From assembly GCA_965201115.1 (NCBI GenBank), contig OZ241745.1, positions 258,308 through 322,307 on the forward strand: DNA of 64,000 nt, in the 5' to 3' direction. This document shows positions 6,417 to 59,118 of this stretch, in pieces; within the stretch, counting starts at the first letter, position 1, and each line of letters starts with the position of its first letter. The notes below the pieces were generated by a model. It was not told where the DNA came from, ran no database searches, and worked only from the letters and a program-made list of their open reading frames with translations. This DNA comes from Alphaproteobacteria bacterium. Lineage in GTDB: Bacteria; Pseudomonadota; Alphaproteobacteria; UBA7887. The position numbers and the translations under genes are program-made.

Positions 6417-6418
6417 TC

Positions 6419-26153: not shown

Positions 26154-27457
26154 GGCTCGACGCCCTCGTTCTCGGCGCGCTGGAGTTCGCCGAACGAGCC
26201 CGCGTAACGCTCGGACAGCTCGTTGTCGGTAAATCGTTTCTCGCCATTGTTCTTTTGATACTCCAGCAACCCGGCCCAGCATTTGACATAAAGACGACGG
26301 GCATCTACGTCGAGGTTACGCTGCGAGGCTACGGCGGCAAGAGCGGTTGCGTTGGCCGACTGCATTCCGGCGTCGAATTCGTGTCCTGTAGCGTCCCGAC
26401 CGACGTCGATCAACTTGTGCCCGATATCGACAAGCAGCGTGCGCCGATCCTGGATATGCGCCAAATGCAACTGTGGCGCATAATCGTTATTCTCGTGGAA
26501 CGCCGAGCCCGACACCGCAAGTCGCATTTGCAACGCCGGGTAGCGAGGAAGTTCGTCCAGAATTTCGGAGGTCGCGGCGAAGATGCCGAATAACGGGATA
26601 CCGCCCTCGATTCCCGGCGCGTCGATCAGTACCCTCATTGCCGCCAAAACGCGCTGCAAAGCCCTGCCTCTGACATTGGTGAGGGTTTCGACTTCGTCCA
26701 GCAACAACGCCAGCCCATGAACGCCCGCCTGCGGCGCGAATCGATTCAGGGACCATAACATGTCTCTGCCGAAACGCTTTCTGTCGCCCGCTGTTATTCC
26801 GGCAAGCTTGAGCTCCGAACGCTCCTGTCTGTCGAGTGTGTCGATCTCGCCATCCAGCCATCGTATCGCGGCCTCGCCTCCGGGCGAATCCTCGTCGTCC
26901 TTCGCTTCCCGCAGCGCCGCGGCCATGACGCGACCGAATGTGCGCTCCGGATACGTTGTCTTTCCGACACTTGCGATCCACCTGTCGAGCGCGACCTCCG
27001 GGTCAGGAACGCCGCGTTCGGAAATTTCCTGTCGCTTCGTATGCAGAACCCGATGGAGCAGCCCGCGCAGCCCCGGATTCGAATATCCGGGCAGGGACAA
27101 TTGTTGGACCGTCTTGCCGTAGAGAGCGAAGGGATCGTCAACGCTGACCCCCGGCGCGCAGGCGACGTACGACACCGCAAAATTTTCGCGCAGCGCGCGT
27201 GCGCCGAGCGCCAGAAGAAAATGGGTCTTTCCGCCGCCGTAGGGCGCCAGGACGAGCTTGAAGTGCGCCGCCGAACGGCACAAATCGCGCAGATAGCGCT
27301 CAGTCAAGCGGTCCAGCCAGCCGTCGATGCCGACGGAATAGCGGGGAAGGGTATTCGAGGCGTCGGCGATGCCGCCGGGCGGCTTGCCGTTGGCCGCCAG
27401 GGTAGCCCATAGCTGGCGGGCTTGCGCCGCAGCCGTCTCGCGCTGTCCGTCAGGCAT
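26150..27457 (-). CDS. P-loop ATPase paralog 2 (DUF2791/BrxD-like)
   Basis: Walker A APYGGGKTHFL, Walker B LLLDEVE, 435 aa. The N-terminal WATLAANGKPP...SVGIDGWLDRL block is shared with paralog 3. 8-nt overlap with the upstream gene. Confidence 0.65.
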   Translation of the reverse strand: MPDGQRETAAAQARQLWATLAANGKPPGGIADASNTLPRYSVGIDGWLDRLTERYLRDLCRSAAHFKLVLAPYGGGKTHFLLALGARALRENFAVSYVACAPGVSVDDPFALYGKTVQQLSLPGYSNPGLRGLLHRVLHTKRQEISERGVPDPEVALDRWIASVGKTTYPERTFGRVMAAALREAKDDEDSPGGEAAIRWLDGEIDTLDRQERSELKLAGITAGDRKRFGRDMLWSLNRFAPQAGVHGLALLLDEVETLTNVRGRALQRVLAAMRVLIDAPGIEGGIPLFGIFAATSEILDELPRYPALQMRLAVSGSAFHENNDYAPQLHLAHIQDRRTLLVDIGHKLIDVGRDATGHEFDAGMQSANATALAAVASQRNLDVDARRLYVKCWAGLLEYQKNNGEKRFTDNELSERYAGSFGELQRAENEGVEP

Positions 27458-28607
27458 GGTTCGCGATCCTTTCCAACGCGCCGCCGGCCGCCATTTTGAT
27501 ATAGTCGCGTACCCGGCCTTGATGTATGTCTGTTGCGTACTCGTTTGCGCGCGCGTCCAGGCGCTCCAGCAAGCCTGCCCGCGCGTCGGAAGGCATGCCG
27601 GCCTCGGCGCCGATGTCCGCGATGCGGGCGGCGATTTCGCGGTAGAACAGGGGGTCGTCGGGCCCGGGATCGGTCAGCTCGTCCAACGCTACCCAGATCG
27701 CGCGCGGATTCGGAGGGGGCGGCGGCGTCGCTCGTTCGATACGCTGCCTCAAAGCGCCGAGATAGCCGCCGGTGGTTTCGATGAAGTCTTCCGCCGCCGC
27801 ATAGTAGACGACGCAACCGCCGATAGCGCCGACCGCCATGTAATCGACGAAAGTTCGGAGATGTGCCAGGCGGCGCAGTATTCGTGTGCGCCCGCCCCTG
27901 TTCAGCGCCGTCTCGGTTTCGTCGAACAGCACGACGAGGCCGGAATAGCCGAGCGCGCGCGGTAGCGACAACAGGGATCGCAACCAGGCGCCCGCGTTCT
28001 TCTGCATAAGCTTGCCGAGGGGCCGCGGCAACCAACGGTGTTGCCGGCACAGGCGCCCCGGCGCCGCGTTATGCCCGCGGGCCGCCTCCAACAGCGCCGC
28101 GAGCGAGTCGCACAGCTCGTCTTCGTCCGTCAGGGCGGCGGCCGCATACGACCGCGCCAGATTGCGGTAGTCGGGCGCCAGCGTCTTGTCGGCGCAAAGG
28201 CGCTCGCTCGCCGGGGCGTTTGCGATAACGCGAACCACGCCGGCGTCGCCGACGGACGTCGGTTTCCCCGGAGGTTTCATACGATGCGCGATCGAGCGAT
28301 AAGTCTCGTCCAGAGTGTCGAACGGGCTTCTGTCCAGGCAATCGACGTATGCAGTAACGAAGCCGTATTCGCACGCGCGGTGTTCCACGGCGCGGAGGAA
28401 ATGCGTTTTCCCGCGTCCGTACGGCGCATGGATAAACTGCATCTCGCCCCCGCCGGCGGCAGCGAAGGGAAGGGTCTCTTCGGCGATACGCCGGAGCGCG
28501 CCATCGATGCCGGCAGACAGGCGGATCGTTGTTTCGCCGTCTGCCGGAGCGACGCCGTTCGCCGCCAAGGCGGCCAGGATATGCCTCGGGTTCATGGCGC
28601 GGCTCAT
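27450..28607 (-). CDS. P-loop ATPase paralog 3 (DUF2791/BrxD-like)
   Basis: Start taken at MSRAMNPRHIL (ATGA overlap with the upstream stop). Walker A APYGRGKTHFL, Walker B VVLFDETE, about 385 aa. Confidence 0.6.
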   Translation of the reverse strand: MSRAMNPRHILAALAANGVAPADGETTIRLSAGIDGALRRIAEETLPFAAAGGGEMQFIHAPYGRGKTHFLRAVEHRACEYGFVTAYVDCLDRSPFDTLDETYRSIAHRMKPPGKPTSVGDAGVVRVIANAPASERLCADKTLAPDYRNLARSYAAAALTDEDELCDSLAALLEAARGHNAAPGRLCRQHRWLPRPLGKLMQKNAGAWLRSLLSLPRALGYSGLVVLFDETETALNRGGRTRILRRLAHLRTFVDYMAVGAIGGCVVYYAAAEDFIETTGGYLGALRQRIERATPPPPPNPRAIWVALDELTDPGPDDPLFYREIAARIADIGAEAGMPSDARAGLLERLDARANEYATDIHQGRVRDYIKMAAGGALERIANHA

Positions 28608-29416
28608 TGCATCTTCTCGATCCACAGCGATGCCAGCTGATGGCCGAGCCCCCCTTGCGCCAGGTTGGGCAAGGTAAGCGCGGCGCCGCGGCCGATGGCC
28701 GCCATGTTCGGCGTCTGGCTCGCCAGGCGTTCATGGTCGTTCGCATACCAGCCGCCGCGCCCGAAACGGGCCATGTCGTATATGAACTGGCACATCGAAT
28801 AGTCCTTGAATTTCTTTCTGTTGGGTTGCTTCCTGAACGCGCTGTCGCGATACTGGCGCTCAAGCACGACGTGCAGATACAGCGTTCGGATGGGGGTCTT
28901 GCCGCCGCGGTCCTCGCCGCGCGCCCGCGCACACCCCAAGGCGTTCTTGACCGTCGCGAAAAACTCGTCGCGCGCAAACGGCGCGCCGTCGAGTTTCTCC
29001 TTCGCATCCCGGATACGGGCGAACAGGCGCGCGCCATCGGTCTCGTCGAACATGTCCAGCTTCTCGCTGCCGAGATACAACGTCACGCGCGCAAGGCGGT
29101 ACTGGACCTTGAAGCAATCGACCCAGTCGTAATTCTGCAACCTGCGCGTCGGCCATCCCGCGTCGCCCGCGGCGTTGTGCAGCGCTTCCCTGCGCTTCGC
29201 GAGTTTGTCTTCGACGCGGCGCTTGAGCGCGTCCCGGCGCTTTTCGAGGGTTTCGACCAACCCGCTCTCCGAAACCTCGCGTACGGCGTCGATGGTCTTG
29301 TCGATCAAAGACAGCAAGGGCAGGTCGTCGTCCGGCTTGGCGCGCGACAAGGCATCGGTCGTGCGCTTTGCCTTGGCGACGCCCTTCTTTATGGCCTGAA
29401 TTTCGTCGTCGAGCAC
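28604..29416 (-). CDS. hypothetical protein, first gene of the ATPase-helicase operon (coiled-coil N-terminus, no recognisable domain)
   Basis: GTG start with a GGGAGG Shine-Dalgarno 8 nt upstream. The track ORF extends to 29773 but that extension runs through a REP element and is R/P-rich junk. About 270 aa, with WVDCFKVQYRLARVTLYLGSEKLDMFDETDG...YLHVVLERQYRDSAF. Confidence 0.5.
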   Translation of the reverse strand: MLDDEIQAIKKGVAKAKRTTDALSRAKPDDDLPLLSLIDKTIDAVREVSESGLVETLEKRRDALKRRVEDKLAKRREALHNAAGDAGWPTRRLQNYDWVDCFKVQYRLARVTLYLGSEKLDMFDETDGARLFARIRDAKEKLDGAPFARDEFFATVKNALGCARARGEDRGGKTPIRTLYLHVVLERQYRDSAFRKQPNRKKFKDYSMCQFIYDMARFGRGGWYANDHERLASQTPNMAAIGRGAALTLPNLAQGGLGHQLASLWIEKMQ

Positions 29417-29579
29417 CGGGCGCCTCCCATGCGGCGGTCCAGCGGGTAACGCGCGCGTTCCGCCGTTGCAGCGCCGACGATAGCGGCCGCCGCGCGCCGC
29501 GCAACCCTGTCGCCGGGGGCGCGATGCGGTGGAGGGGGGCGGCCGGGCAACCGGTCGGCATCGTTCCGCCCGCGCAGTG

Positions 29580-29660
29580 GCGCTGTCGGCGAGACGCCCG
29601 CGCCGAAGGCGCGGACTGCCCGGGACCGCGGGCGTCCCCGCCCGCACGTCCCGACCGTCC
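29580..29660. repeat. REP-like repeat, variant B, in the divergent promoter region between the defense-like operon and kefB-like gene
   Basis: gacgcccgcgccgaaggcgcggactgcccgggaccgcgggcgtccccgcccgcacgtcccgaccgtcccg. Confidence 0.5.
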
Positions 29661-29915
29661 CGAACGAGGCCGGGCAGGGCGCGTCGCCGGCGCGCGCGCC
29701 CGGACTGCCGGTCGTCTGGACAACCCGCGGATATATTTCTATAATGTTCCCATGACCGCCGCCTCCCGCGCAACCTCCGCCCGCGCCGCCGCTCGGCGGG
29801 CGCCCGGCGCGCCGGCCCGGGCGGGAGCCCCGCAGAGCCCCGCGGATCCCCGCAACGCCCTTGCCCGCCCGGCGCCGCGCGTCGCGCGGCGGGGATATGC
29901 TATGTTCGGCGGGGC

Positions 29916-31655: not shown

Positions 31656-32963
31656 ATGTTGCTGCGTTTCGGCGTGTCGAACCATCTGTCGATCCGCGAC
31701 TTTCAGGCACTGCTGCTGACGCCTGCCGCGTTGCGGGAACCGGCGGAGGGGTTGATCTCGTGCCCGCCCGCGCCCGGAGGCAAACTGCTTCCCGCCGCCG
31801 TCATCTACGGCGCCAACGCGTCCGGCAAGACGAATTGCATCCACGCCATGCATTTCATGCGCCATCTGGTGTTGGGTTCTCATGCCCACGGGAAGCCGGG
31901 CGAGAATGTCCCGCGCTATCCTTTCAAACTCGATCCGGCCTGCATCGATACGCCGTCGCGCTTCGAAATCGATTTCGTCCTCGACGACGGCGTGCGCTAC
32001 CATTACGGTTTCGAGGCGTCCGACAAGGCGTTCGAATCGGAATGGTTGTACGCCTTCCCCAAGGCGCGCCGCCGGATATTGTTCGAGCGCGACGGAAGCG
32101 ACTATCGTTTCGGCCGCTGGTTGGCAGGCAAAAACGAGATCGTTCGGGGCTTGACCAGACCCAACAGCCTGTACGTTTCGGCGGCGGCGCAGAACGGGCA
32201 TGAGCAGCTGTCCGGTATCTTCGGGTACTTCGAAGCGCTTCATGGCGTTGGCGCTACCGACGTTACGGGCGTGGAGGGCATATTACGGTTCGCCGGAGAC
32301 GAACCGGACCGTCGAACGATCGATTTTCTCGAGCATGTCGGCATTGCGGTATCGGGATACAGAAAAAAGAAAGACGATATGTACGCCAGGATCGGGAACG
32401 ATATGAAAAAAATCGGGGCCATGACCGGCATTCCCGAGGGAGCGGCGGCGTCCGAAGCGTTGCATGACCGCTTTGCGATACTGGCGAGGGACGGGGAACT
32501 GCAACTCGCTCATCGCAGCTGGGCGGGCAACGACGTTTACCTTGAGCTGGAACGGGAAAGCGCGGGCACGCGGCGGCTGCTTCTCGTATTGCGCGAGACG
32601 TATCGTGCGCTGGACAAGGGCTTGCCGTTGGCGATCGACGAACTGGACGCCAGCTTGCACACTCAGGCCGCCAAATCGGTGCTCGGCCTGTTTTGCTCTC
32701 ATGAGACGAATCCGAACGGCGCGCAACTGATCGCGACGACTCACGATACCAACCTGATGAAGGTCCGGATGTCGACGCGGGACCGGATTCTGAGGCAGGA
32801 TCAAATCTGGTTCGCGGAGCAGGGGCGGGATGGCGAGACGACCCTGTATCCGCTTACCGATTACCGGACTCGCAAGGGCGATAATATCGAGAGGGAGTAC
32901 TTGCAGGGCCGTTACGGCGCGACGCCTCTCGATGATATTGTCACGGGCCATGGCGCGGCGTAG
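31656..32963 (+). CDS. AAA_21/AAA_15-type ABC-like ATPase (AbiLi-like abortive-infection ATPase)
   Basis: Walker A at the N-terminus (IYGANASGKTN); D-loop/Walker B LAIDELDASLH; H-loop ATTHDTNL. 435 aa. Confidence 0.75.
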   Translation: MLLRFGVSNHLSIRDFQALLLTPAALREPAEGLISCPPAPGGKLLPAAVIYGANASGKTNCIHAMHFMRHLVLGSHAHGKPGENVPRYPFKLDPACIDTPSRFEIDFVLDDGVRYHYGFEASDKAFESEWLYAFPKARRRILFERDGSDYRFGRWLAGKNEIVRGLTRPNSLYVSAAAQNGHEQLSGIFGYFEALHGVGATDVTGVEGILRFAGDEPDRRTIDFLEHVGIAVSGYRKKKDDMYARIGNDMKKIGAMTGIPEGAAASEALHDRFAILARDGELQLAHRSWAGNDVYLELERESAGTRRLLLVLRETYRALDKGLPLAIDELDASLHTQAAKSVLGLFCSHETNPNGAQLIATTHDTNLMKVRMSTRDRILRQDQIWFAEQGRDGETTLYPLTDYRTRKGDNIEREYLQGRYGATPLDDIVTGHGAA

Positions 32964-33621
32964 CCGCAAGGACGGCCGCGGCGATCCGATAGCGTTCGAA
33001 CGCCGTCGTTCCGTTCGGGATCGGAGGCGGCGCTTCGTTCTGTTTTGCGAAGGCCGCAACACGGAACCGGGGTACTTCGGAGCGGTTCGGCGGTTCTGCG
33101 CGGGAGGCGCCGTCGCCATACGGATTGTGCAAGGTCTCGGCGTGCCGATGGCGGTTGCGGAGCGCGCCGCGGATGAAAGCAGGCAACTTCGTGCAAGGGG
33201 CGCGGGTCGCGGCGGGGACCGGATCTGGGCGGTGTTCGACCGTGACAGCCACCCGGAATATGAGGAAGCGGCGGTGCTTTGCGAGCGGCACGGGGTCGAA
33301 GTCGCGCGTTCGGACCCGTGCTTCGAGCTCTGGTTGATTCTCCATATCGAGAAATACGACAAGGCGTGCGGCAATAGCGACGTGCAAAGGCGTCTTGAGA
33401 CGCTGCGCCCCGAATACGATCGCAAAGGCGCCAAGACGGCGGACTTTACCGGCTTGATTCGCTGTGCAGAGGATGCGGAAGAACGCGCGGCCATGCAATT
33501 GCGTTTGCGCGAACGGGAAGGAAAGCCGTTCGGCAATCCTTCGACCACGGTCGGGAATTTAACCCGCGCCATTCGCGAGGCGAACGGGCAAGCGCGTTGG
33601 AGCGCGCCGCCCGCCCGATAA
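32950..33621 (+). CDS. RloB-like protein (AbiLii-like; predicted Toprim/OLD-type nuclease partner)
   Basis: FVLFCEGRNTEPGYF matches the RloB N-terminal signature (xLIVCEGEKTEPxYF). Conserved DRD and E motifs (WAVFDRDSHPEYEE, CFELWLILH). Overlaps the ATPase stop by 14 nt. Confidence 0.7.
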   Translation: MARRSRKDGRGDPIAFERRRSVRDRRRRFVLFCEGRNTEPGYFGAVRRFCAGGAVAIRIVQGLGVPMAVAERAADESRQLRARGAGRGGDRIWAVFDRDSHPEYEEAAVLCERHGVEVARSDPCFELWLILHIEKYDKACGNSDVQRRLETLRPEYDRKGAKTADFTGLIRCAEDAEERAAMQLRLREREGKPFGNPSTTVGNLTRAIREANGQARWSAPPAR

Positions 33622-36684: not shown

Positions 36685-36931
36685 AATGAGATGCGTCGTG
36701 GGTATGTTCGTATCATCGCACGAATGGGCCGTCGTTTCGGCTGACGATTCTGCGCAGGCCCTGTTCCCCGTCGGCAGTGCTGCTGGCGAACGCGGCGCGG
36801 GCGCACCGACGGCGGGCGGTGAGTTTACGCCACTGCGAAGCATCGATCGTCCGGACGACCGTACCCGTGGGGCAGATTCGGTATCGAGCTGTACTCTGTA
36901 AACTCGCTGCCCGACCGCTGGAGGCTATCGA

Positions 36932-38827
36932 ATGAAATACCTGTCGGACGCCGCAATACGGTGGGCTATCGACCGGTTGCGAAAAGGGTCGCACCCGTTT
37001 CTCGGCATCACCTTTCTGGCGTGCAAATCGGCAGGCTTGCCTGTCGGTTCGACCGCGCGCGTGCGCCTGGACCGGGTGACGCGGGAGCATCTCGACCGCC
37101 ACCACCGTTTGGCGCCGCAAAGCGACTGTTATTTTCAGCCGTTCGGCGGGAAGAAGGCGTGGGTGGGGCCAAAGTACCCATCGAAGGGGCTCCAGCCTTT
37201 TAATACGGGAAAATTCGCGCGCGCATTCCGGCATCCCGGGGGAACACAGGAATGGGGTTTCGTCGAGAACTACGTCGATGAGATTGCCGACGTCGGGCGA
37301 TACGCCTTGGATCTTCAAGCTGTATCGGTATGGGTGCTGAAGGATCGGAAGTGGTCCGACCGCGACTCCTTGGAAACGGTGATCGATTGTTTTCTCGAGT
37401 CGTACAGAATTACAAAATACGAGCGTGACAATCTGTTCTCCATGGATGGGTTTGGAATGGCGGATGAATTGGCAAACGAGGATGTATCGCATTGCGGTAT
37501 ATTCGACGAGCGCCCGCCGGATTTGAGAGGTATCGCATTTCGATACGGCGCCCCGCCGGATAACAAGGTCGACAAGAAGCGCTCTCGACTGCTTCGTTTG
37601 GCGCTGTCGGATGTCGGACCGTCCAAAAGACTAAGCATGGATTTGGGGAAACGTCTAACGCTAATTGCAGGCGACAACGGTTTGGGGAAATCGTTTATTC
37701 TGGATGTTATATGGTGGGCAATAACAGGAAATTGGCTCGGACGGCCCGCGTTGCCTTTCGACGTGTTAGAGAATGGCTGCAACAAGGTCGCAGCAACGAT
37801 AGAGTTTAAGGTTGCGATGGATGAGGCGCCGAGTGTAACAGCGAAGGGTTATTTTCATCGGGATACCCATTCGTGGAACATGGACAGCGAAAGACCCCGG
37901 TTATCTTCCTTGTGTATTTTCGTCAGGGTCGATGGTTCGTTTGCGGTCGCCGATGAAATGCGAGCCAGATTTGGGAACGGCAATCGATCCGGCATCGGTT
38001 ATTTTACGAGGGCCGAAGTATGGGATGGCAAACCGGGGGAGATCGAGGGTATGGTTCGGGACTGGATCGCCTGGCAGCTGTCTCCCGACCGCGAGACATT
38101 CTCGAAATTGGAGAAAGTTCTTGCCTGCTTGTCCCCGGAAGATCTAGGGCGTATAAAGCCGGGGGATCCGGCGCGGCTTCCCGGAGACCCGCGGCAAATA
38201 CCGACTATCGTTCATCCCTACGGGACTGTCCCTGTCGTGTTCTCGTCCGCCGGCGTTCAGAGTATTCTTCTTCTGACATATATGATGACATGGGTATGGC
38301 ATGAACACAAGATCGCCGCCCGGCAGCTGGGCGAGGAGCCGTTTGGAAGGATGACAATAATCCTGGACGAAGTAGAGGCCCACCTGCACCCGCGATGGCA
38401 GAGGACTGTTTTGCCTGCGTTGATGGGAATCGGCGATCTTTTGCAGAAAGATATAGCGGTGCAGGTCGTTGCTTCTACGCACTCCCCTATGGTGTTGGCG
38501 TCCATGGAGACGATGTTCTCGCATGGCAGCGATGTACTGTATCATCTGCTTCTAAAGGATTCGGCGGTGGTATTGGAGGAAATCGAGTTTCAAAAATACG
38601 GTGATGTATCGGCGTGGCTGATGTCTTCGGTTTTCGGGCTGCGGCATGCGCGCTCGCGCGAGGCAGAGGAGGCGATAGAGGCAGCAAAAAAAGCGCAGCT
38701 GTCGAGCATGGATGATAAATCGGAGGTAGAGAATATATCCAATAAATTGAAACGTGCATTGGCGGGCGACGATCCGTTTTGGCCGCGGTGGATATTCTTT
38801 GCGGAAGAAAGGGGGGTATCGTTATGA
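36932..38827 (+). CDS. AAA_15/21-type ATPase (Septu PtuA-like) with an additional ~240-aa N-terminal domain of unknown function; located in a low-GC island
   Basis: Walker A LIAGDNGLGKSF sits at about residue 245 rather than at the N-terminus. Walker B/D-loop MTIILDEVEAHLHP; H-loop VVASTHSP. 631 aa. Local GC is markedly lower than flanking DNA. Confidence 0.65.
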   Translation: MKYLSDAAIRWAIDRLRKGSHPFLGITFLACKSAGLPVGSTARVRLDRVTREHLDRHHRLAPQSDCYFQPFGGKKAWVGPKYPSKGLQPFNTGKFARAFRHPGGTQEWGFVENYVDEIADVGRYALDLQAVSVWVLKDRKWSDRDSLETVIDCFLESYRITKYERDNLFSMDGFGMADELANEDVSHCGIFDERPPDLRGIAFRYGAPPDNKVDKKRSRLLRLALSDVGPSKRLSMDLGKRLTLIAGDNGLGKSFILDVIWWAITGNWLGRPALPFDVLENGCNKVAATIEFKVAMDEAPSVTAKGYFHRDTHSWNMDSERPRLSSLCIFVRVDGSFAVADEMRARFGNGNRSGIGYFTRAEVWDGKPGEIEGMVRDWIAWQLSPDRETFSKLEKVLACLSPEDLGRIKPGDPARLPGDPRQIPTIVHPYGTVPVVFSSAGVQSILLLTYMMTWVWHEHKIAARQLGEEPFGRMTIILDEVEAHLHPRWQRTVLPALMGIGDLLQKDIAVQVVASTHSPMVLASMETMFSHGSDVLYHLLLKDSAVVLEEIEFQKYGDVSAWLMSSVFGLRHARSREAEEAIEAAKKAQLSSMDDKSEVENISNKLKRALAGDDPFWPRWIFFAEERGVSL

Positions 38828-39447
38828 TTCCGGTGCGGCGTCAGCCGGAGTATCGGGAGTTCGATAAGGAAGTTCGTCAACCGGGTCTGCGATTTCTGAA
38901 AGCAAATCCACGGCCGAATAGCAGGGAGTTCGCGGAACATGAGTACTGGCGGAAGGCGCACTCCCAATTAAGGCATGTATATGGGGGCTTGTGCGCATAC
39001 ACATCGCGTTACATCGTCGACGTCGGCGAGGGATCTGTCGACCATTTTCATCCGAAAAGCAAGTTTCCTGATCTTGCGTATGAGTGGTGTAACTATCGGC
39101 TCGCAAGACGGAAAGTTAATAATTATAAAGGCGACAAAATTGGAATAATAGATCCGTTCGTAGTGCAATCGTCGTGGTTTATACTTGAGTTTCCGGGCTG
39201 TTTGGTACGGTCGGGGATCGATCTCGATGAGAAAACGGAGAATCGTGTGGAAAAATCGATAGAAGTATTGCGATTGAACAAGGACGACAGGTTGGTTCAG
39301 GAGAGATACAACCATTTGAGAGACTATGTGTCCGGAAACTTGACATTGGACTACCTTGACCGCCGTTACCCGTTCCTGTCGAAAGAGATCGGAAGACAAG
39401 GATTGAGCAAGAAAAAGTTGCGGGAAATGTTCAAACGTCCGAAATAA
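38824..39447 (+). CDS. HNH endonuclease (Septu PtuB-like, retron-type small HNH)
   Basis: GLCAYTSRYIV...VDHFHPKSKFPDLAYEWCNYRLARRKVNNYKGD gives the HNH layout C...C...DH...N...C. 207 aa. 4-nt overlap with the ATPase gene. Confidence 0.65.
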   Translation: MIPVRRQPEYREFDKEVRQPGLRFLKANPRPNSREFAEHEYWRKAHSQLRHVYGGLCAYTSRYIVDVGEGSVDHFHPKSKFPDLAYEWCNYRLARRKVNNYKGDKIGIIDPFVVQSSWFILEFPGCLVRSGIDLDEKTENRVEKSIEVLRLNKDDRLVQERYNHLRDYVSGNLTLDYLDRRYPFLSKEIGRQGLSKKKLREMFKRPK

Positions 39448-39487
39448 ATTCGATCGCGCGGTGGAGAGCCGATAAAAACGGCTTTCG

Positions 39488-40357
39488 TCACGCGGTCGTT
39501 GCCGTCCTGATCGGCGTGTCCGGGCGGGCGGCCCATTCGGCCCAGGAGCCGTCATAGACGGCCCAGTCGCGTTTGCCGGCGCGGTCCATGGCCAGGGCGA
39601 GGATGCAGGCGCTGACGCCGGAGCCGCAGCTGGCGATCACGGGGCGCGTCCAGTCGGCGCCGGCGGCTTCGAAACGGGCGCGGGTTTCATCGGCGCCGGG
39701 CATCCAGACCCCATCGGTCAGGAGTTTCTCCCAGGGGAGCGAGACCGCGCCGGGCATGTGGCCGCCCGAGCGGATTTGAGGATAGGGGTCGGTTTCGCGG
39801 CCCGAGAAACGCGCGGCGTTGCGGGCGTCGACGATCTGGAGGTTCGGGTCGCGCAGGGCGGCATGGACGTCGCGCCAGTTGCGCACCGATTCGCGGCGCG
39901 GCGGGCGCGCCTCGTAAGCGCGCGGTTCGGGCGCGGCGGCGCCGCTTTCGGTTTCGCCGCCGGCGGCGCGCCACGCGGGCAGGCCGCCGTCGAGCACCGA
40001 GACGCGGTCATGGCCGAAGACGCGGAACATCCACCAGACGCGCGCCGCGCTATAGAGGCCGCGCGTATCGTAGGCGATAACATGGCTTGCGCGGGATATG
40101 CCGAGCGCGCCGACCTTCGCGGCGAAGGTTTCGGCGTCGGGCAGCATGTGGTCGAGCGGCCCCCACGGCTCGGGGTCGGCAACGTCGTCGATATCGAAAT
40201 AAGCCGCGCCGGGGATATGCGCCTCGCGGTATTCGGCGCCGGCGTCGCGGCCCAGCACCGGCAGATGATACGTCGCGTCCACGACCGCCAGCGAGGCGGC
40301 GGCGAGGTTTTCCTTCAACCAGGCGGCGGAAACGACGGCGGGCGCCGATTCGTTCAT
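39488..40357 (-). CDS. 3-mercaptopyruvate/thiosulfate sulfurtransferase (tandem rhodanese domains, SseA-like)
   Basis: Two rhodanese domains, with active-site CGSGVSAC in the second. 289 aa from MNESAP. Confidence 0.8.
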   Translation of the reverse strand: MNESAPAVVSAAWLKENLAAASLAVVDATYHLPVLGRDAGAEYREAHIPGAAYFDIDDVADPEPWGPLDHMLPDAETFAAKVGALGISRASHVIAYDTRGLYSAARVWWMFRVFGHDRVSVLDGGLPAWRAAGGETESGAAAPEPRAYEARPPRRESVRNWRDVHAALRDPNLQIVDARNAARFSGRETDPYPQIRSGGHMPGAVSLPWEKLLTDGVWMPGADETRARFEAAGADWTRPVIASCGSGVSACILALAMDRAGKRDWAVYDGSWAEWAARPDTPIRTATTA

Positions 40358-41223
40358 GGTCCTGTCTCCACGGGCGTGTCGGCGCGGCCGCCCCAATCGG
40401 TCCACGAGCCGTCATAGACAGCAACCCGGTCGTGGCCGATGAGGTGCAGGCCGAGGGCGAGATTGCAGGCGGTGACGCCGGACCCGCAGGAGGTAATGAC
40501 CGGGCGGTCGGTATCGATTCCCGCGCCGCGGAAGAGCGCGGCGAGGGCATCGGCCCCTTTCATCGTTCGGGTATCGGCGTCGTAGAGTTCGAGAAACGGA
40601 AGGTTGCGCGAGCCGGGTATGCGGCCGCCGCGCAGCCCCGGGCGGGGTTCGGGTTCGGTCCCGGCGAAGCGGCCGCGCGTGCGCGCGTCGAGTATCCGTT
40701 CGGCGCCCGATTCGGCGGCGGCGCGCACCTCGCCGCGGCTACGAACCAGTTGCGGCGCCGGCGGGACGGGGTACGAAGCCGGCGCGGGCCGCGCGGCGCC
40801 GCTCTCGACGGGCCGGCCCTCGGCGCGCCATTTCGGCAGGCCGCCGTCGAGCACCGAAACCCGTTCGTGGCCGAAAGCCCGGAACATCCACCATGCGCGC
40901 GCAGCGCTGCCGACGCCGGTCGCGTCGTAACAGACAACGTGCGAATCGGCGGCGACGCCGAGCGCCCCCGCCTTTTCCGCGAAGGTTTCCGCGTCCGGCA
41001 GCATGTGCGGAAGCGGATTCGCCGCATCGGCGATGTCGTCGATGTCGAAGAAGACCGCGCCGGGAATATGGGCCTCGGCGAACTCGGCGCGCGGGTCGCG
41101 TTGCAGCGCCGGCATGTGCCACGAGGCGTCGATAACGCGGATTCCCGGGGCGGGCGCCGCCGGTCCCGCGCGCGCGGCGAGCCACGCGGTGGATACGAGC
41201 GCGCCGGGGTTGGCATAGGCCAT
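40354..41223 (-). CDS. 3-mercaptopyruvate/thiosulfate sulfurtransferase paralog (SseA-like)
   Basis: Active-site CGSGVTAC; about 45% identical to the downstream paralog. Start taken at MAYANPGAL. Confidence 0.8.
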   Translation of the reverse strand: MAYANPGALVSTAWLAARAGPAAPAPGIRVIDASWHMPALQRDPRAEFAEAHIPGAVFFDIDDIADAANPLPHMLPDAETFAEKAGALGVAADSHVVCYDATGVGSAARAWWMFRAFGHERVSVLDGGLPKWRAEGRPVESGAARPAPASYPVPPAPQLVRSRGEVRAAAESGAERILDARTRGRFAGTEPEPRPGLRGGRIPGSRNLPFLELYDADTRTMKGADALAALFRGAGIDTDRPVITSCGSGVTACNLALGLHLIGHDRVAVYDGSWTDWGGRADTPVETGP

Positions 41224-41374
41224 GTCGTTCTCCCGTGTCATGGCGGCAGCTATCGATGTCGACCGAGCCGCGCCCATGTTTTCATGCCCGTCGAGGCTGT
41301 TTCCCGGCGGTCGCGGCGAGGCGACATCGATAGCCCTCGATACCATACCGACGGTTGTCGGAATCGGCACGTTT

Positions 41375-41521: not shown

Positions 41522-44500
41522 TCAGAACCGCACGGTGAGTGCGGCGCTGCCGCTGAAGTCGCGGTTGCCGTTGCGGGCGGCGGCGTAGGCGGCGTTGGCG
41601 CGCAGCGCTATGCGGCCGTCGGCCCATTCATGGGCGGCGCCCAGGCCGAGGCGGGCCCATGTCGCTTCCGCTTCGGCCTTGAAGGGCGGCCTGTCTTCCG
41701 CCGTCGCCTCCATTGCGCCCGACAGTTCGCGCTCCAGGTCCAGCGTTGCGAACATGGCGCCGGCGCCGCCGGGGAGGGCGGCGGACTCGGCGCGCACGCC
41801 CGCGCGCGCCGTAATCCGTCGACCGGCGTCCAGAGACACGCGCTCGCCCATCGCGTCCGTGAACGACGACATCTCCACCATCGACCAATCGGCGCCCGCG
41901 CGCGGCGTCAGCGCCACGCGGCCCAGGTCGAGCCGCCGCCCGATCTCCACGCCGGCGGCGTAGCCGCGGCCCGAAAGATCGCGCGCAAGCGCGCCCTCGA
42001 GCGCCGCATCCGAATCGAGGTCCGCCTCGTACAGCGTCGCCGCGGCATGGCCGCTCACATAGACGTTCTCCGCCGGCAGCCACGCGCCCGATATGCGCGC
42101 CCCCGTGCCGGTTATCTCGATGCGGCCGCCGCCCGCCTCGGTGTCCGCGTCCGCCTCCACATCCGCGCGGCCGCGCACATGATGAACGGAGACAGCGAAC
42201 ACGCCGCGCTCGCCCGCCGCGCCCTCTATCCCCGCCTCGAACCCGAAGCGGCGATAGTCGTGGCGCGCCGCCGCCGTCGAGGAGGCCGGATGGCGCTCGC
42301 CGCCGCCGGCGTCGAGACGCGCGAACGCCCCCCGCGGCGCGCCCGCGGCGGCGAACCGGTCGCCGTGGGCGGGCAGCGCGTTCAGCGCCAGCAGCGCCGA
42401 AGGCAGCGCCTCGTACACGCGATGCCGCGGCGCAGGCCCGACCTCGATACGCTCGTCGCCGGTTATCCGGAGCATCGAATCGGCGCGGCCCTCGCGCTCG
42501 AGGACGATGGTGGCGCCGCCGGCCTCGATGCGTCCGCCGCCGACGCGCAGCACGGCGTCTTCGTCCGATTCGCCCGCGGCGGCCTTCACTGTCACCGCGG
42601 CCGCGCCGGCGATGGGCTCCTCGATGCGTCCGTTCTCGCCCACCGTCACCGCGCCGCGGGGCGCATCGACGCTCTTCACCGCGCCGTTCACCTCGACCGT
42701 GCTGCCGGTCCCCGCCAGCGTGACCCGGCCGTCGATTTCGCCGCCGGCCCCCACCGTCACGGTCGAAGCGGCGCCGGCGTCGCGCGCCTCCACGGCGCCT
42801 TCCACCATGCCATCGACCGTCATGCTCAGCGCGCCGGTTTCGGCGACGACCGCAACGCGCCGGCCCTGCGCGTCTTCCGCGCCCACGAGTTCGCCGCCCG
42901 CGGCAACCTCGACCTTGCCGCCGGCGGGAACATGCAACATGCCTTCCGCATCCCCGGCCATGGCGATGAACTCGACGCCCCGGACGTTCCCCCTGAACTC
43001 CGCGCCGGACGCCACCGTCAGCCGATGCGCGCCGCCGCCGCCGCCGATGACGTCGCCCGTCAGCGCGTTCGCGACCGCCACCGTCAGCGCCCCGGGGCCC
43101 AGGTCCTCGATGCTGCCCACGACATTGCCGTTCACCATCACCGTCAGGTCGCCGCGGGCGTTGCGCACCGCCCGCCCGTCGAGGCCCGATATGCGCCCCC
43201 CGGAACTCACCTCGACCGTTCCGCCGCGGTCGAACTGCACGCTCGCGGCCGCGCCATCGACCGTAACCTTGCTGGCCGCGAGGCGGATGAGACCCTCGAC
43301 CGATCCGCCCGATTTCACATGAACGTCGTGTTCGCCGCCGCCGAGGCCGAATATCCCGCCCTCGACGGTTCCGCTCACATCCACGTCCAGGTCGCCCTCG
43401 CCCTCGCCGCGGATGGCGCCCGTCACGGTCGCCCGCGCCGCCACGTCCACCGTCAGATCGCCCGCCGCGCTCCGGATCGCCTCGCGACCGCGGTCCGACG
43501 TATCGATGCCCGTTACCGCGCCGCCGGACGCAACCGTGACCGAGCCGCCGTTGTCGTAGAGTACGCGCCCCACGCGGCCCGCCACTGTCATCGCGCTCGT
43601 CGGCAGATGCACCGTGCCTGTCACCGCGCCGCCGGCCATCGCTGCAACCGTGTGCGAACCCGCGCCTGTCCCGCCGATGTCGCCTTCGACCGTCCCGCTC
43701 ACTTCCACGTCCAGGTCGCCGTCGCCCGCGCCGCGGATATCGCCGGTCACGGTCGCCCGCGCCGCAACATCCACCTCCAGATCGCCCGCCGCGCTGCGTA
43801 TCGCTTCGCGACCGCCGTCCCCGGTCTCGACGCCGGCAATACTCCCCGTCGCCGCAACCATCACCGATCCGCCATTGTCGTAAAGCACCCGCCCCACGCG
43901 GCCCGCAATCGTCATCGCGCTTGTCGGAAGATGCACGGTCCCCGTCACCGCGCCGCCGGCCATCACCGCAACCGTGTGCGAACCCGCGCCCATGCCGCGA
44001 ATGCCGCCGGTAACCGTCCCCGTCACCGTCGCCGTCAAATCCCCCGCGCCGCGCTCCTCGATGTCGCCCGTCACGCGGCCCGCCACCGATGCAACCAGAT
44101 CGCCGGCCTCCATATCCACGATATCGCCCGTCACCATGCCGCCGGACGCGACCGTAACCTCGTGCTTGCCGGCGCCCTTGCCGTGGATGGCGCCCGTCAC
44201 CGCGCCGCCCACATTCACGGTCATGGCGCCCGCGCCGCGCCCCTCGATGCGGCCCATGACCGCCCCGCCGGACGCAACCGACACCGTCAGGTCCCCCGCG
44301 TCGGCGCGAATCGCCTCGCCGCCGACGCCGGCGATGCGGCCCGTCGCCGCAACCGTCAACGCGCCGCCGTTGTCGAACAGGACGCGCCCCGCAGCGCCGC
44401 GGATCGTCGTCCCGCTCTTCGGGTTATGCACCGTCCCCAACACCCGCGCCTTCTCAGCGATCTCGATGGTATGCACGCCGCCGCCGCGACCGAAAATCTC

Positions 44501-47500
44501 CCCGTTAATCGTGCCGGTCTCCGACACCGTCACCGTCAGGTCGCCATCGCCGCGCGCCTCGATATTGCCCGCGACCGTCCCGTGAACGGTGACCGCCAAA
44601 TCGCCCGCGTCGCCGCGGATCGCCTCCTTCGTTCCGTCGATATCGAGGCCCGTAATCTCGCCGCTGGCGTTGACCGTAACCGCGCCCCCGTTGTCGTAGT
44701 GGACGCGCCCGACATCGCCCGAGACCGTCAGCGCCGCGCCTGTCGGCAGGCGCACCGTTCCGGCAATGGCGCCCGACGACGCCACCGTAACCGTGTGTTC
44801 GCCCGCGCCCTCGCCGGTAACGCCGCCCGTCACCGTTCCGGCGACCGTGACGTCCAGGTCGCCCGCGCCGCGCTCGGCGATATCGCCCGTCACCGCGCCG
44901 GCGACGTCGACCTCGAGATCGCCGCCGCCGCGGCCCTCGACGAGGCCCGTGACCGCGCCATTGGCCGCGACCGTGACGTCGAGATCGCCCGCGTCGGCGC
45001 GAATCGCCTCGGTCGTTCCATCGTTATCGACGCCCGTTACCGCGCCGCCGCCGGCGACCGTAACCGTCCCGCCGTCGTCGTAGAGAATGCGCCCGGCGCT
45101 GCCGCGCACGGTCGTCGGACTCGCGGGGTTGCGTATCGTGCCCGTCACGACGCCGCCGGCCATGACGTTCGCCGTCAACGCGCCGTCGCCGGAGGGGCGA
45201 AGACCGCCCTCGATCCGGCCCGCTACCGTGACGGAAAGATCGCCCGACACGGCGCGAATCGTCTCGGTCGCGCCGTCGATCGCGATGCCCGTAATCGCAC
45301 CGCCCCTGGCGACCGTAACTGTCCCCCCGCCGGCATAGAGAATACGTCCGACGCTGCCGCCCACGGTCATCGGACTCGCGGGGTTGTGTATCGTGCCCGT
45401 CACCGCGCCGCCGGCGTTGACGGTTGCCGTCAGCGTGCCGCCCGACTTGACGTCGCCCTCGACGCGGATCCCGTCGTTCACCGTGACGGTCAGCGCGCCG
45501 GCCGCGCTCTCGATGGCCACGCCCTCGACGCCGGTCAGCGTCCCGCTCCCGGACACCGTCACCGTCCCGCCGCTGGCGTAAAGAATGCGCCCGATGCTGC
45601 CCGCGACTGCAAGCGCGGTCTGCGGGTCGTGTATCGTCCCCGTCACGACGCCGCCGTCCATGACATTCGCCGTCAACGAGCCGCCGCCATCGACGCGGAT
45701 GTCGCCCGTGACCCGCCCCGAAACGGTGGCCGTCAGAGCGCCGCCGCCGTCGCCGAGGATGGCGACGCCCGATGTTGCGCTCACCTCGCCGTCCGCGCCC
45801 ACGGTCACCGCGCCGCCGCCGAACAGATGCACGCCCGCGCCGGTTCCGCCCATCGCGGCCCCGTGTACCGTCACCTGCTGGTTGCGCACGCCGCTTGTGA
45901 CGCCCGCGCCGCGGACATAAATGCCCTTCGCCCCGCCGGTAACCCGCGCGCCCGCCGCAACCGTCACCGCGATGGCGCCGTTGCTGGCATGCGGAACGAC
46001 GTAAAGCGCCTCCACGCCGTTCCCCTCGGCGTCGATGGCGCCGCCGGTCACGTCCACATGGATGTCGCCGGCGTTGTAGGTCAGCGCGTGTTGCCGGACC
46101 GCGTTCTTCCAGTCGGCGTCGTAGGCAGCGTCGGGAAGGGCGGTCAGCGCCGCCTCCAGATCGGTCCCCGACCCCTTCGTCAACACGGCCGTCAGCGCCG
46201 CGCGCTCAGCGGTCGAAAGCGCGTCGCCGGCGCGGACACGATCGGCGATCGCCGTGTGCGACAGCGCCATGGCGCGAACGCCCGCGCTCGAAAGGCCCAA
46301 AATCTCCTCCGCCGCCGCGTGCGCCAGCGGGCCGTCGCCGGTCGCCGCGGCGGCCGCCGCGGCGCGCTTGCGCCGGAGATCCTCCGCCTCCGCCTTCCAG
46401 GCGGCGTCGTAAGAAGCCGGGAGCGCCGCCAGCGCCGTCGTCAGCGCGCTCGAATCGTTCGCCGTTATCGCCGCAAGCACGGCCTGTTCCGCCGCCGACA
46501 GCGTCTCGTCGGCGCCCGCGATCCGGCCCCGGATGAAAGCCTCCGTCACCGGCGCGCCCACCATGATGCTTCCGCTCGACGTAACGTGGATCATCGGCGT
46601 CGTCCGCGCCGCGTCGTCCGCCGTCGTGGCGCCCGCGCCCATCGTGTGGCCGCTCGACCGCGGGGCCCACGCGAGAACGCCGGCATCCCGCGCCTCGACC
46701 GCGCCCCCATGCGTGACCGCGATGCGCCCCGTGGCGCTCGCGTTGTTCGTAAGCCGCCCCTCCATGCCGATGGAGAACGGCGACGCGATCTTCGCCGGCG
46801 CCGCCGTCGTCATAGCGACCGAGCCGAGGTTCAGGGAGTGCGTCAGAATGCCCTTGGCGTCCAGCCCCTCCACCGCGATGCTGCCGCCGGTCACGGCAAT
46901 GGGAACCGTCTTGCCGGCCGCGAGGGCGGAGAACACCCCCACAACGCCGTGGGCGTTGTCCTGCTCCGTCACGATGGAGCCGCCCGACATGCGGAAGGAG
47001 TGGTTGCCGGGCCCGTTGCCGCGCTCCATGACAACCCCATGGGCGGAGAACCCGAAGGAGGACCCGCCCCGCGTGCGGATCGCGCCGCCCTCGACGATGA
47101 CGGTTATGTCGCCTGCCCCCGTGCCGTTGGAAAGGGCCAGGACGCCATAGCTGCCAGCTCCCGTCGTCTCGACCGAGCCGTCTGCCATGCGGATGGAGAG
47201 GTTGCCCGTCCCGTTGTTTTGGCCGTGGATGGCGTAATTGAAGTTGCCCGCCGCCTTGATGACGGCGTTGCCGGAGACGACGATGGATGCGTTGCCCGAC
47301 CCGCCGCTGAGTATTTGGGCGACGAGTTTGCCGGCGAGGGAGCCGCCGCTCATGCTGGCGGAGACGTTGCCCGCCCACATTCTCCCGCCGGTGACGGAGG
47401 CGTTGCCCGTGAGGGAGGCGCCCGTTATGCCGATGGCGCCGTTGCCCGACCCGAGCGCCCGGACTACAACGCTCAGGCCGCCCGACCCTGTGAGTGTGGC

Positions 47501-47737
47501 GCCGGACTTTACGCTGACGGTTACGTTGCCGGAGCCGCTGTGCTCGGCGTCGATGCGCGGGATGTTGACGCTTCCCGGGTCGACGACGATGTGGGCGCTG
47601 CTGCCGGCGGCTTCGGTGCAGGAAATGCTCGCGCTGCCCGTATGCGCGCCGCCGCGGCACTCGGTCTGCGCCGCCGCCTCCCCGGCCCACAAGGCGAGCG
47701 CGAGAACCAGCCCCGGCGCGAGCGCCCGGACGCTCAT
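41522..47737 (-). CDS. giant autotransporter adhesin (type Va secretion; beta-helical repeat passenger + C-terminal beta-barrel translocator)
   Basis: Signal peptide MSVRALAPGLVLALALWAGEAAAQ. Dozens of ~70-aa G/T/V-rich repeats (GGAVTGTIHNPASPMTVGGSVGRILY...). The C-terminal ~280 aa have an autotransporter barrel signature ending ...SAALTVRF. 2071 aa. Confidence 0.85.
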   Translation of the reverse strand: MSVRALAPGLVLALALWAGEAAAQTECRGGAHTGSASISCTEAAGSSAHIVVDPGSVNIPRIDAEHSGSGNVTVSVKSGATLTGSGGLSVVVRALGSGNGAIGITGASLTGNASVTGGRMWAGNVSASMSGGSLAGKLVAQILSGGSGNASIVVSGNAVIKAAGNFNYAIHGQNNGTGNLSIRMADGSVETTGAGSYGVLALSNGTGAGDITVIVEGGAIRTRGGSSFGFSAHGVVMERGNGPGNHSFRMSGGSIVTEQDNAHGVVGVFSALAAGKTVPIAVTGGSIAVEGLDAKGILTHSLNLGSVAMTTAAPAKIASPFSIGMEGRLTNNASATGRIAVTHGGAVEARDAGVLAWAPRSSGHTMGAGATTADDAARTTPMIHVTSSGSIMVGAPVTEAFIRGRIAGADETLSAAEQAVLAAITANDSSALTTALAALPASYDAAWKAEAEDLRRKRAAAAAAATGDGPLAHAAAEEILGLSSAGVRAMALSHTAIADRVRAGDALSTAERAALTAVLTKGSGTDLEAALTALPDAAYDADWKNAVRQHALTYNAGDIHVDVTGGAIDAEGNGVEALYVVPHASNGAIAVTVAAGARVTGGAKGIYVRGAGVTSGVRNQQVTVHGAAMGGTGAGVHLFGGGAVTVGADGEVSATSGVAILGDGGGALTATVSGRVTGDIRVDGGGSLTANVMDGGVVTGTIHDPQTALAVAGSIGRILYASGGTVTVSGSGTLTGVEGVAIESAAGALTVTVNDGIRVEGDVKSGGTLTATVNAGGAVTGTIHNPASPMTVGGSVGRILYAGGGTVTVARGGAITGIAIDGATETIRAVSGDLSVTVAGRIEGGLRPSGDGALTANVMAGGVVTGTIRNPASPTTVRGSAGRILYDDGGTVTVAGGGAVTGVDNDGTTEAIRADAGDLDVTVAANGAVTGLVEGRGGGDLEVDVAGAVTGDIAERGAGDLDVTVAGTVTGGVTGEGAGEHTVTVASSGAIAGTVRLPTGAALTVSGDVGRVHYDNGGAVTVNASGEITGLDIDGTKEAIRGDAGDLAVTVHGTVAGNIEARGDGDLTVTVSETGTINGEIFGRGGGVHTIEIAEKARVLGTVHNPKSGTTIRGAAGRVLFDNGGALTVAATGRIAGVGGEAIRADAGDLTVSVASGGAVMGRIEGRGAGAMTVNVGGAVTGAIHGKGAGKHEVTVASGGMVTGDIVDMEAGDLVASVAGRVTGDIEERGAGDLTATVTGTVTGGIRGMGAGSHTVAVMAGGAVTGTVHLPTSAMTIAGRVGRVLYDNGGSVMVAATGSIAGVETGDGGREAIRSAAGDLEVDVAARATVTGDIRGAGDGDLDVEVSGTVEGDIGGTGAGSHTVAAMAGGAVTGTVHLPTSAMTVAGRVGRVLYDNGGSVTVASGGAVTGIDTSDRGREAIRSAAGDLTVDVAARATVTGAIRGEGEGDLDVDVSGTVEGGIFGLGGGEHDVHVKSGGSVEGLIRLAASKVTVDGAAASVQFDRGGTVEVSSGGRISGLDGRAVRNARGDLTVMVNGNVVGSIEDLGPGALTVAVANALTGDVIGGGGGAHRLTVASGAEFRGNVRGVEFIAMAGDAEGMLHVPAGGKVEVAAGGELVGAEDAQGRRVAVVAETGALSMTVDGMVEGAVEARDAGAASTVTVGAGGEIDGRVTLAGTGSTVEVNGAVKSVDAPRGAVTVGENGRIEEPIAGAAAVTVKAAAGESDEDAVLRVGGGRIEAGGATIVLEREGRADSMLRITGDERIEVGPAPRHRVYEALPSALLALNALPAHGDRFAAAGAPRGAFARLDAGGGERHPASSTAAARHDYRRFGFEAGIEGAAGERGVFAVSVHHVRGRADVEADADTEAGGGRIEITGTGARISGAWLPAENVYVSGHAAATLYEADLDSDAALEGALARDLSGRGYAAGVEIGRRLDLGRVALTPRAGADWSMVEMSSFTDAMGERVSLDAGRRITARAGVRAESAALPGGAGAMFATLDLERELSGAMEATAEDRPPFKAEAEATWARLGLGAAHEWADGRIALRANAAYAAARNGNRDFSGSAALTVRF

Positions 47738-59077: not shown

Positions 59078-59118
59078 CGGCCCATGCGCGGCGCAACTTG
59101 CGCCGCAAACGCCGAATC

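Follow-up and report, generated by a model that had tools for sequence, protein, structure and literature searches.

A low-GC insert between an SDR gene and a rhodanese gene carries ptuA and ptuB

The DNA investigated here, hereafter the window, comprises 64,000 nucleotides (nt) of contig OZ241745.1 (positions 258,308 to 322,307, forward strand; assembly GCA_965201115.1) from an Alphaproteobacteria bacterium of the lineage UBA7887. It harbours a low-GC insert with two genes, ptuA and ptuB, which encode an ATPase and an HNH nuclease of the Septu type, respectively. The PtuA protein carries an additional N-terminal domain (N-domain), and in nearly all relatives the corresponding gene pair is accompanied by a DNA methyltransferase gene that the window lacks. 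The features of the locus are listed below in window coordinates.

36862..39487, no strand assigned: low-GC insert flanked by the SDR gene and the rhodanese (sseA-like) gene (GC 0.53 versus 0.71-0.73 in the flanks)
36920..36924, plus strand: Shine-Dalgarno-like GGAGG, 7 nt ahead of the ptuA ATG, as read from the sequence
36932..38827, plus strand: ptuA, 631 amino acids (aa), clade-specific N-terminal domain followed by an SMC/Rad50-like ABC ATPase
36932..37447, plus strand: core of the PtuA N-domain, residues 1-172, basic, winged-helix-like, without Pfam family
37448..37585, plus strand: acidic, partly disordered linker of PtuA, residues 173-218, with a conserved PPD motif (from model confidence, isoelectric point and alignment)
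37586..38827, plus strand: ATPase module of PtuA, residues 219-631 (motifs invariant in a 45-sequence alignment; match to PDLC00307)
37670-37693, near 38357-38392 and 38471-38488, plus strand: Walker A, Walker B/D-loop and H-loop within the ATPase module, respectively
38824..39447, plus strand: ptuB, 207-aa HNH nuclease (PADLOC, PHROG and TIGR02646 matches; ENA gene call)

Between the stop codon of the SDR gene (36684) and the rhodanese gene (39488, minus strand) there are exactly two co-directional genes, ptuA and ptuB, which overlap by 4 nt (ATGA), and the gap from this stop codon to the ATG of ptuA measures only 247 nt. At 0.530, the GC content of positions 36932-39447 is the lowest among all 2516-nt stretches of the window (mean 0.684, standard deviation 0.039), the flanks having values of 0.714 on the left and 0.725 on the right. 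Accordingly, a 400-nt profile declines from ~0.71 at 36000 to 0.46-0.60 over 37000-39400 and returns to 0.72-0.75 by 39600. As the insert has the lowest GC content of the window, it is regarded as a horizontally acquired Septu pair composed of the SMC/Rad50-like ABC ATPase PtuA and the HNH nuclease PtuB. Its left limit probably lies after 36861, since the sequence up to this position still matches the region downstream of the SDR gene in a diverged strain (L068, see below). No tRNA genes were found within 20 kb of the insert, no integrase among the neighbouring genes and no convincing direct or inverted repeats at its flanks, and an origin as a mobile element with recognisable ends was rejected on these grounds. 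An initial annotation of this DNA had described a sharp GC drop, exactly two overlapping genes and island ends devoid of integrase, tRNA and direct repeats, and in all three respects it agrees with the GC profile, the gene coordinates and the searches of the surroundings.

Profile searches place both proteins in the Septu family. PtuA matches the PADLOC PtuA model PDLC00270 with E 2e-211, residues 3-631 covering profile positions 2-627 of 627, and a second PADLOC PtuA model without N-domain (PDLC00307, 424 positions) matches residues 222-629 only (E 1.7e-131). PtuB is recognised by the PADLOC model PDLC00348 (E 1.9e-63) and by a PHROG HNH endonuclease (E 7.6e-9). The Walker A motif (GDNGLGKS, residues 247-254), the signature, the Walker B/D-loop (ILDEVEAHLHP, residues 476-487) and the H-loop (ASTHSP, residues 514-519) of an ABC/SMC-type ATPase are present in PtuA, and the gene immediately downstream encodes a small nuclease with the HNH residues D73-H74...N90...N99/N100. 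The ATPase motifs and the D-H...N...N residues are likewise conserved in the homologues. Based on the PADLOC matches and the conservation of all these motifs, the window pair is identified as Septu in sequence, structure and gene organisation; the AlphaFold2 model of whole PtuA reaches a predicted local distance difference test score (pLDDT) of 84.4. The open reading frame (ORF) of the second gene opens at TTG 38779, and the ptuB start was put at ATG 38824 (207 aa), following gene calls on public ENA contigs that encode an identical protein. By its scores, PtuB appears to be a divergent representative, which matches TIGR02646 (E 8.5e-9) and NF041761 significantly, yet stays below their curated cut-offs (35.6 versus 52.15 bits and 40 versus 150 bits, respectively). 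Thus, the initial annotation was right about a ~200-aa nuclease of the PtuB kind and about the order of Walker A, D-loop and H-loop with a P-loop only at residue ~245, and the PADLOC classification that it proposed as a check returned Septu PtuA and PtuB, whereas its expectation that the nuclease would pass TIGR02646/HNH models failed at the curated cut-offs of TIGR02646 and NF041761. An identity of the pair as PARIS, Gabija, OLD or AbiL was rejected, as there is no Toprim or RloB-type partner and the best match is not to the AriA, GajA or AbiLi models. A phage collection gave no match.

The N-terminal domain of PtuA appears confined to one clade

The N-domain comprises ~215 aa and is a real extra domain, because the sequence alignment with solved PtuA chains is confined to residues ~216-527, that is the ATPase part, and no Pfam family matches residues 1-230; the Pfam matches to AAA_21, AAA_15 and AAA_23 all start only from residue ~223. 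There was also no significant sequence match in the PDB for residues 1-218 (a profile of the domain returned only MntR with E = 1), none in a Foldseek comparison of the N-domain model with the PDB (best E 2.4), and no meaningful match among the PHROGs. The AlphaFold2 model of the domain is confident (pLDDT 85.5, predicted template modelling score 0.85) and has weak similarity to winged-helix folds. While the core (residues 1-172) is basic, with a mean isoelectric point of 8.6 and a net charge of +4.3, the linker (mean 4.5) and the ATPase module (5.7) are acidic. Within the linker, residues 175-184 have a pLDDT below 50, and P208, P209 and D210 are nearly invariant.

Among 30 sampled sequences, 30 residues of the N-domain are invariant, all of which are kept by the window PtuA, and the conserved motifs include HPFxGITFLACK, HHRLD, YFQPF and YPSSGLQAINTQTF. 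The best-conserved segment, Y82-F95, is a low-confidence loop in the model, a behaviour that would be expected of a segment that becomes ordered upon binding of a partner, as at an interaction site. No invariant constellation like that of a known catalytic site was recognised in the domain, and no enzyme fold was matched. The idea that the N-domain is a duplicated target-recognition region of the methyltransferase described below was dropped, as alignment of the two profiles by hhalign shows no homology.

A word-indexed search with the N-domain returned only 5 fragments, and an exhaustive hidden Markov model search of 1.84 billion cluster representatives was then used, which recovered 255 proteins with the domain. 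The 150 targets listed are all ≤ 670 aa in size, carry the domain at their N-terminus wherever its start was matched, and include no other architecture; the short matches are probably fragments. Judged from these sizes and the N-terminal placement, the domain seems confined to the N-terminus of this PtuA clade. Stand-alone copies or fusions to other defence ATPases, which the initial annotation had suggested to look for, were not among these 150. Full-length PtuA in turn yielded 900 significant matches in a collection of 5.8 billion proteins, and ~115 of the 120 homologues listed align over ≥ 99% of the query with 46-57% identity. The N-terminus was correctly singled out in the initial annotation as an extra domain; it does not align to ordinary PtuA N-termini, an outcome that would have refuted this reading had it been the reverse. 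Its statement that this region matches nothing stands for Pfam and the PDB but not for PADLOC, as PDLC00270 spans the domain end to end, and the claim of a new, uncatalogued Septu variant falls with this coverage (residues 3-631) and with at least ~115 full-length homologues.

Type I Septu of E. coli (PDB 8EE4/8EE7/8EEA) resembles the window pair in having two overlapping genes for an ABC/SMC-like ATPase and a ~200-aa HNH nuclease, in matching the PADLOC PtuA/PtuB models and in the absence of an adjacent reverse transcriptase. However, solved PtuA is devoid of the N-domain and is only ~19% identical to the window protein, and a coupling to a DNA methyltransferase, which is the normal state in the clade of the window PtuA, was found nowhere described for Septu. 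An added N-terminal PtuA element also exists in the retron type I-A PtuAB systems (Ec78/Eco7, Ec83/Eco4; 'Septu type II'), where it contacts the reverse transcriptase and the non-coding RNA (PMC12819146). This extension is short and helical as compared to the ~215-aa window domain, and neither a reverse transcriptase nor a non-coding RNA is present at the window locus, where SDR and rhodanese genes are the neighbours of ptuAB. Without a reverse transcriptase beside ptuAB and with a PtuA score far below the cut-off of NF041760 (66.5 versus 500 bits; PtuB 40 versus 150), membership in retron type I-A was rejected.

A DNA methyltransferase gene accompanies ptuAB in relatives

When the N-domain profile was run against a single genome of each species, 65 loci were obtained, which are spread over more than 10 phyla and stem from Nitrospirota, Acidobacteriota, Chloroflexota, Gemmatimonadota, Spirochaetia, Alpha- and Gammaproteobacteria, Clostridia, Bacteroidota and others. 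In ~60 of them ptuB follows ptuA, the exceptions being mostly contig ends. Clustering of the ORFs over the loci revealed one further conserved gene of ~290-340 aa, located directly upstream of ptuA on the same strand, and no other conserved neighbour, which leaves its product without another conserved nuclease partner. This upstream gene encodes a PF01555 N6/N4 DNA methyltransferase (E ~1e-41), which also matches PADLOC MTase_II (PDLC03387, E ~1e-81) and has its best PDB matches among DNA cytosine-N4 methyltransferases (E 2e-26). Its motif IV reads TSPP[YF] and its central region is strongly conserved across phyla; judged by these similarities, the target would be N4-cytosine. The methyltransferase gene adjoins the N-domain ptuA in 62 of the 65 loci, overlaps its start by 4 nt in 25 of the 53 loci scored, and is likewise found next to the ptuA of the closest relative outside the window lineage (P0009, locus L070). 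Many of the top methyltransferase homologues and PtuA homologues sit on equally long contigs. Hence, in nearly every other genome the pair belongs, as restriction half, to a three-gene operon for a PF01555 methyltransferase, PtuA and PtuB, a point absent from the initial annotation. We define this arrangement (methyltransferase, N-domain PtuA, PtuB) as methyltransferase-linked Septu subtype. Among the cultured strains with such an operon are Nitratireductor indicus C115 (L021), Bradyrhizobium semiaridum WSM 1704 (L023) and Lonsdalea britannica LMG 26267 (L059).

Three loci deviate. Two of them, L031 and L033, are copies ~19 kb apart on one Spirochaetia contig, both without methyltransferase; L033 is intact and includes PtuB, and L031 is degraded. 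The third, L038 (2794-7878), encodes an N-domain PtuA without methyltransferase and without PtuB, preceded by ORFs of 425 aa and 627 aa that have no PADLOC match. In a separate case, a truncated PF01555 domain (profile positions 1-118 of 221) and a complete N-domain PtuA are encoded by what appears to be a single ORF on a 5040-nt metagenome contig (P0094, 933 aa); this fusion may be genuine or may have arisen through faulty assembly or a frameshift.

The sister clade without N-domain (PDLC00307) provides a comparison. Its members, exemplified by Allocoleopsis pMIC7113.01, Azospirillum B510 pAB510c, Azotobacter, Nostoc and Aeromonas, are 33-41% identical to PtuA residues ~227-631 and have the same PtuB downstream, but consist of ptuA and ptuB with no such methyltransferase adjacent in 5/5 loci examined. 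The N-domain and the methyltransferase thus co-occur (Fisher's exact p = 4.6e-6, with five N-domain-less loci). The open-access literature yielded no report of a methyltransferase-linked Septu, a winged-helix PtuA domain or such a three-gene unit, and the PADLOC paper describes only the reverse-transcriptase-associated Septu type II.

With Type I/III and McrBC-like restriction-modification systems the relatives share a methyltransferase that is translationally coupled to an NTPase-nuclease module, and this coupling suggests self/non-self discrimination by methylation. In contrast to those systems, the motor of the clade is an SMC/Rad50-type ABC ATPase rather than an SF2 helicase or AAA+ GTPase, its nuclease is a separate small HNH protein, and the window copy is without methyltransferase. 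MADS also combines a methyltransferase with an AAA-type ATPase, and weak matches to the mad2 and mad3 models were obtained. MADS is a much larger set of eight genes, and membership was rejected as marginal, the MAD3 match reaching 21.9 bits versus a cut-off of 420 and covering only residues 475-527.

The window pair lacks the methyltransferase and is nevertheless maintained

By its N-domain the window PtuA belongs to this clade, residues 1-218 aligning with full-length homologues of 46-57% identity, but its gene is not directly preceded by a co-directional PF01555 gene. A tblastn search of the 64-kb window with 45 orthologous methyltransferases gave no match, and no methyltransferase remnant was found in the 247-nt gap upstream of ptuA or in 2.2 kb of additional sequence that strain L068 has at this place. 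The two-gene insert occurs at the same SDR/rhodanese site in the loci L001, L002, L068 and L074; the carriers comprise two metagenome contigs that encode an identical protein, one frameshifted long-read contig and L068. L068 represents a diverged strain, whose PtuA is 86% identical to that of the window, and both ORFs are full length in the two strains, which differ by 10% at the nucleotide level.

Comparison of the window with L068 gave a ratio of nonsynonymous to synonymous substitution rates (dN/dS) of 0.21 for the whole ptuA gene, with 0.35 for the N-domain and 0.18 for the ATPase module, and of 0.36 for ptuB, the flanking genes ranging from 0.16 to 0.22. The window PtuA departs from the family consensus at 5 of 62 conserved columns of the N-domain and at 8 of 149 columns of the ATPase, which is within the family range. 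Thus, purifying selection acts on ptuA and ptuB, both of which are intact, and given the low dN/dS and the ordinary number of consensus deviations, the orphan pair is maintained rather than decaying.

Divergence between the two strains is distributed unevenly. Nucleotide identity is 93-95% over 36898-37647, whereas it reaches 78-87% in the remainder of ptuA, beginning at 37648, and throughout ptuB. The synonymous rate dS amounts to 0.11 in the N-domain, to 0.51 in the ATPase module and to 0.32 in ptuB. As the breakpoint at 37648, inside ptuA, is close to the junction of N-domain and ATPase module, these values suggest that recombination replaced the ATPase-PtuB module separately from the N-domain. 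Between its SDR gene and ptuA, L068 has 2.2 kb of extra sequence (5755-7966), in which a low-GC ORF encodes a hydrophobic protein of 209 aa that is possibly membrane-bound. The same stretch also includes a fragment of the rhodanese 3' end and a degraded second SDR copy (79-81% identical), which points to repeated insertion or recombination at the SDR/ptuA intergenic site.

Other genes of the window

GC is also lowered, to 0.62, at 31656-33621 (plus strand), where an AbiL abortive-infection pair is encoded, consisting of AbiLi, an AAA_21 ATPase (31656..32963; PADLOC E 1.4e-82), and AbiLii, an RloB protein (32950..33621; PADLOC E 4.4e-22). Between this pair and ptuAB lie genes of the nitrile hydratase, hydrolase and SDR kinds, and the region with both pairs is a loose defence neighbourhood. 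Another defence-related pair may be present on the minus strand at 27450-29773, where the gene of a BrxD-like ATPase (27450..28625; PADLOC BrxD, E 9.7e-24) overlaps a 389-aa ORF without PADLOC match (28604..29773). Immediately downstream of the insert there are two tandem rhodanese (sseA-like) paralogues (39488-41370, minus strand), followed by an ORF of 2071 aa (41522-47737, minus strand) whose highly repetitive, Gly/Ala/Thr/Val-rich product resembles an autotransporter or adhesin. Adjacent genes for tRNA-Ile(GAT) and tRNA-Ala(TGC) at 59001-59194 (plus strand) correspond to the usual 16S-23S spacer pair, and an rRNA operon is probably located at about 57-63 kb of the window.

A probable restriction-modification-like Septu subtype and its alternatives

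In characterised Septu systems, the Walker A/B and H-N-H residues are needed for defence (PMC13096335). The E. coli proteins form a 6:2 PtuA:PtuB complex whose nuclease is inhibited by ATP (PMC12640716, PMC12065111), and the substrates vary by system and comprise plasmid nicking, single-stranded DNA and tRNA-Tyr (PMC12640716). In retrons, PtuA's N-terminal extension contacts a regulatory partner (PMC12819146), and by analogy with it the N-domain may be a regulatory or sensing element. With this background it is reasonable to assume, and we consider it rather probable, that the window pair is an orphan belonging to a restriction-modification-like subtype of Septu, in which the N-domain would serve as a reader of DNA or of its methylation. 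That is, the methyltransferase would mark host DNA, the N-domain of PtuA would read nucleic acid or its methylation status, and this reading would permit release or activation of PtuB by the PtuA oligomer, with ATP binding and hydrolysis by PtuA gating the nuclease as in characterised Septu. The orphan pair would probably still act as a defence nuclease, self-damage being averted because the genome encodes an unlinked methyltransferase, because targets are scarce at its GC content of 68-72% or because a phage trigger is required.

Several points weigh against this interpretation. Toxicity would be expected of a restriction nuclease that has no methyltransferase of its own, but the orphan has been kept, which fits simple restriction-modification less well. 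Methylation is not needed by the characterised Septu and retron PtuAB systems, which respond to a phage trigger by cleaving tRNA-Tyr or nicking DNA (PMC13096335, PMC12640716). The comparison with the N-domain-less clade rests on only five loci, and in a distance-matrix analysis co-evolution with the methyltransferase was barely stronger for the N-domain (r 0.69) than for the ATPase (r 0.67), so that this comparison did not discriminate reading of DNA from docking. Moreover, the window PtuA has glycine at positions 72 and 103, which are basic in 89-93% of the homologues, a change that could matter for tolerance of the orphan state. In a bolder version, to which we give clearly less credence, the N-domain PtuA clade would constitute an undescribed class of ATP-dependent restriction-modification, with a winged-helix-like reader on an SMC-type ATPase that gates an HNH nuclease by N4-cytosine marks, and the window would hold a restriction half persisting under selection without its methyltransferase. 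If true, such a half would call for a second layer of control, e.g. a phage trigger or the ATP level as in classical Septu, or for re-use as a methylation-independent abortive-infection module.

Alternatively, though with lower probability still, the system could operate like Type III enzymes, the N-domain docking the methyltransferase, which itself would recognise DNA and report methylation. The tight translational coupling of the methyltransferase gene with ptuA, the high conservation of the central region of the methyltransferase across phyla and a small positive partial correlation (0.25) between methyltransferase and N-domain distances are in favour of docking. The orphan pair would then be unable to restrict by methylation and would survive as a classical trigger-activated abortive-infection Septu, and being non-toxic it would agree with the observed persistence. 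However, in the methyltransferase-less lineage the N-domain is under purifying selection (dN/dS 0.35) and keeps every family-invariant residue sampled, and its basic character is that expected for nucleic-acid binding. It appears improbable that the pair is a decaying remnant of the three-gene system, inactive or on the way to a pseudogene after loss of the methyltransferase. Besides the absence of this gene from the window, alteration of two conserved basic positions and of D61 in the N-domain and the dN/dS values of ptuB (0.36) and the N-domain, somewhat above those of the flanking genes, would fit decay; on the other hand, full-length ORFs in two strains 10% apart, dN/dS well below 1, catalytic motifs that are all intact, deviations within the family range and a good ribosome-binding site speak for a functional pair.

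Slightly less probable still is a guard mechanism reminiscent of PrrC, which is embedded in a restriction-modification locus together with EcoprrI: the methyltransferase would hold PtuAB inactive via the N-domain, and inhibition of the methyltransferase or depletion of S-adenosylmethionine by a phage would unleash the nuclease, e.g. against tRNA. Cleavage of tRNA-Tyr by Septu and retron PtuAB in vivo (PMC13096335, PMC12640716), the citation of PrrC and RloC as ABC ATPases that regulate nuclease domains (PMC12065111), and the lack of another conserved nuclease partner for the methyltransferase are compatible with guarding. Yet, a lone methyltransferase gives no protection worth guarding, and orphan PtuAB would be constitutively active and toxic, whereas it is in fact maintained. 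The least likely reading is that of the initial annotation, according to which a hitherto unseen Septu variant has acquired a novel sensor or effector domain by fusion to PtuA. Residues 1-218 indeed lack Pfam and PDB sequence matches, the domain is absent from the solved PtuA structures, and we found no open-access paper mentioning it; the end-to-end coverage by a PADLOC PtuA model and the many full-length homologues (~115 of the 120 listed, of 900) nevertheless contradict "unseen", and neither a catalytic constellation of known type nor an enzyme fold supports an effector.

Significance

The pair itself is already catalogued, and existing tools would call the locus Septu type I. At present, Septu is understood as a two-gene, trigger-activated ATPase-nuclease with retrons as the sole described add-on. 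A widespread clade that possesses a dedicated PtuA N-domain and an obligatory-looking upstream methyltransferase would tie Septu to methylation-based self/non-self discrimination and would give the uncharacterised N-domain a testable role. Annotation tools would label the three-gene loci as 'Septu type I' next to an unrelated Type II or orphan methyltransferase, and the unit would thereby be missed. The window copy, in turn, represents a natural experiment, as the nuclease half persists without methyltransferase and intact in at least two diverged strains, and thus bears on how such systems avoid autoimmunity.

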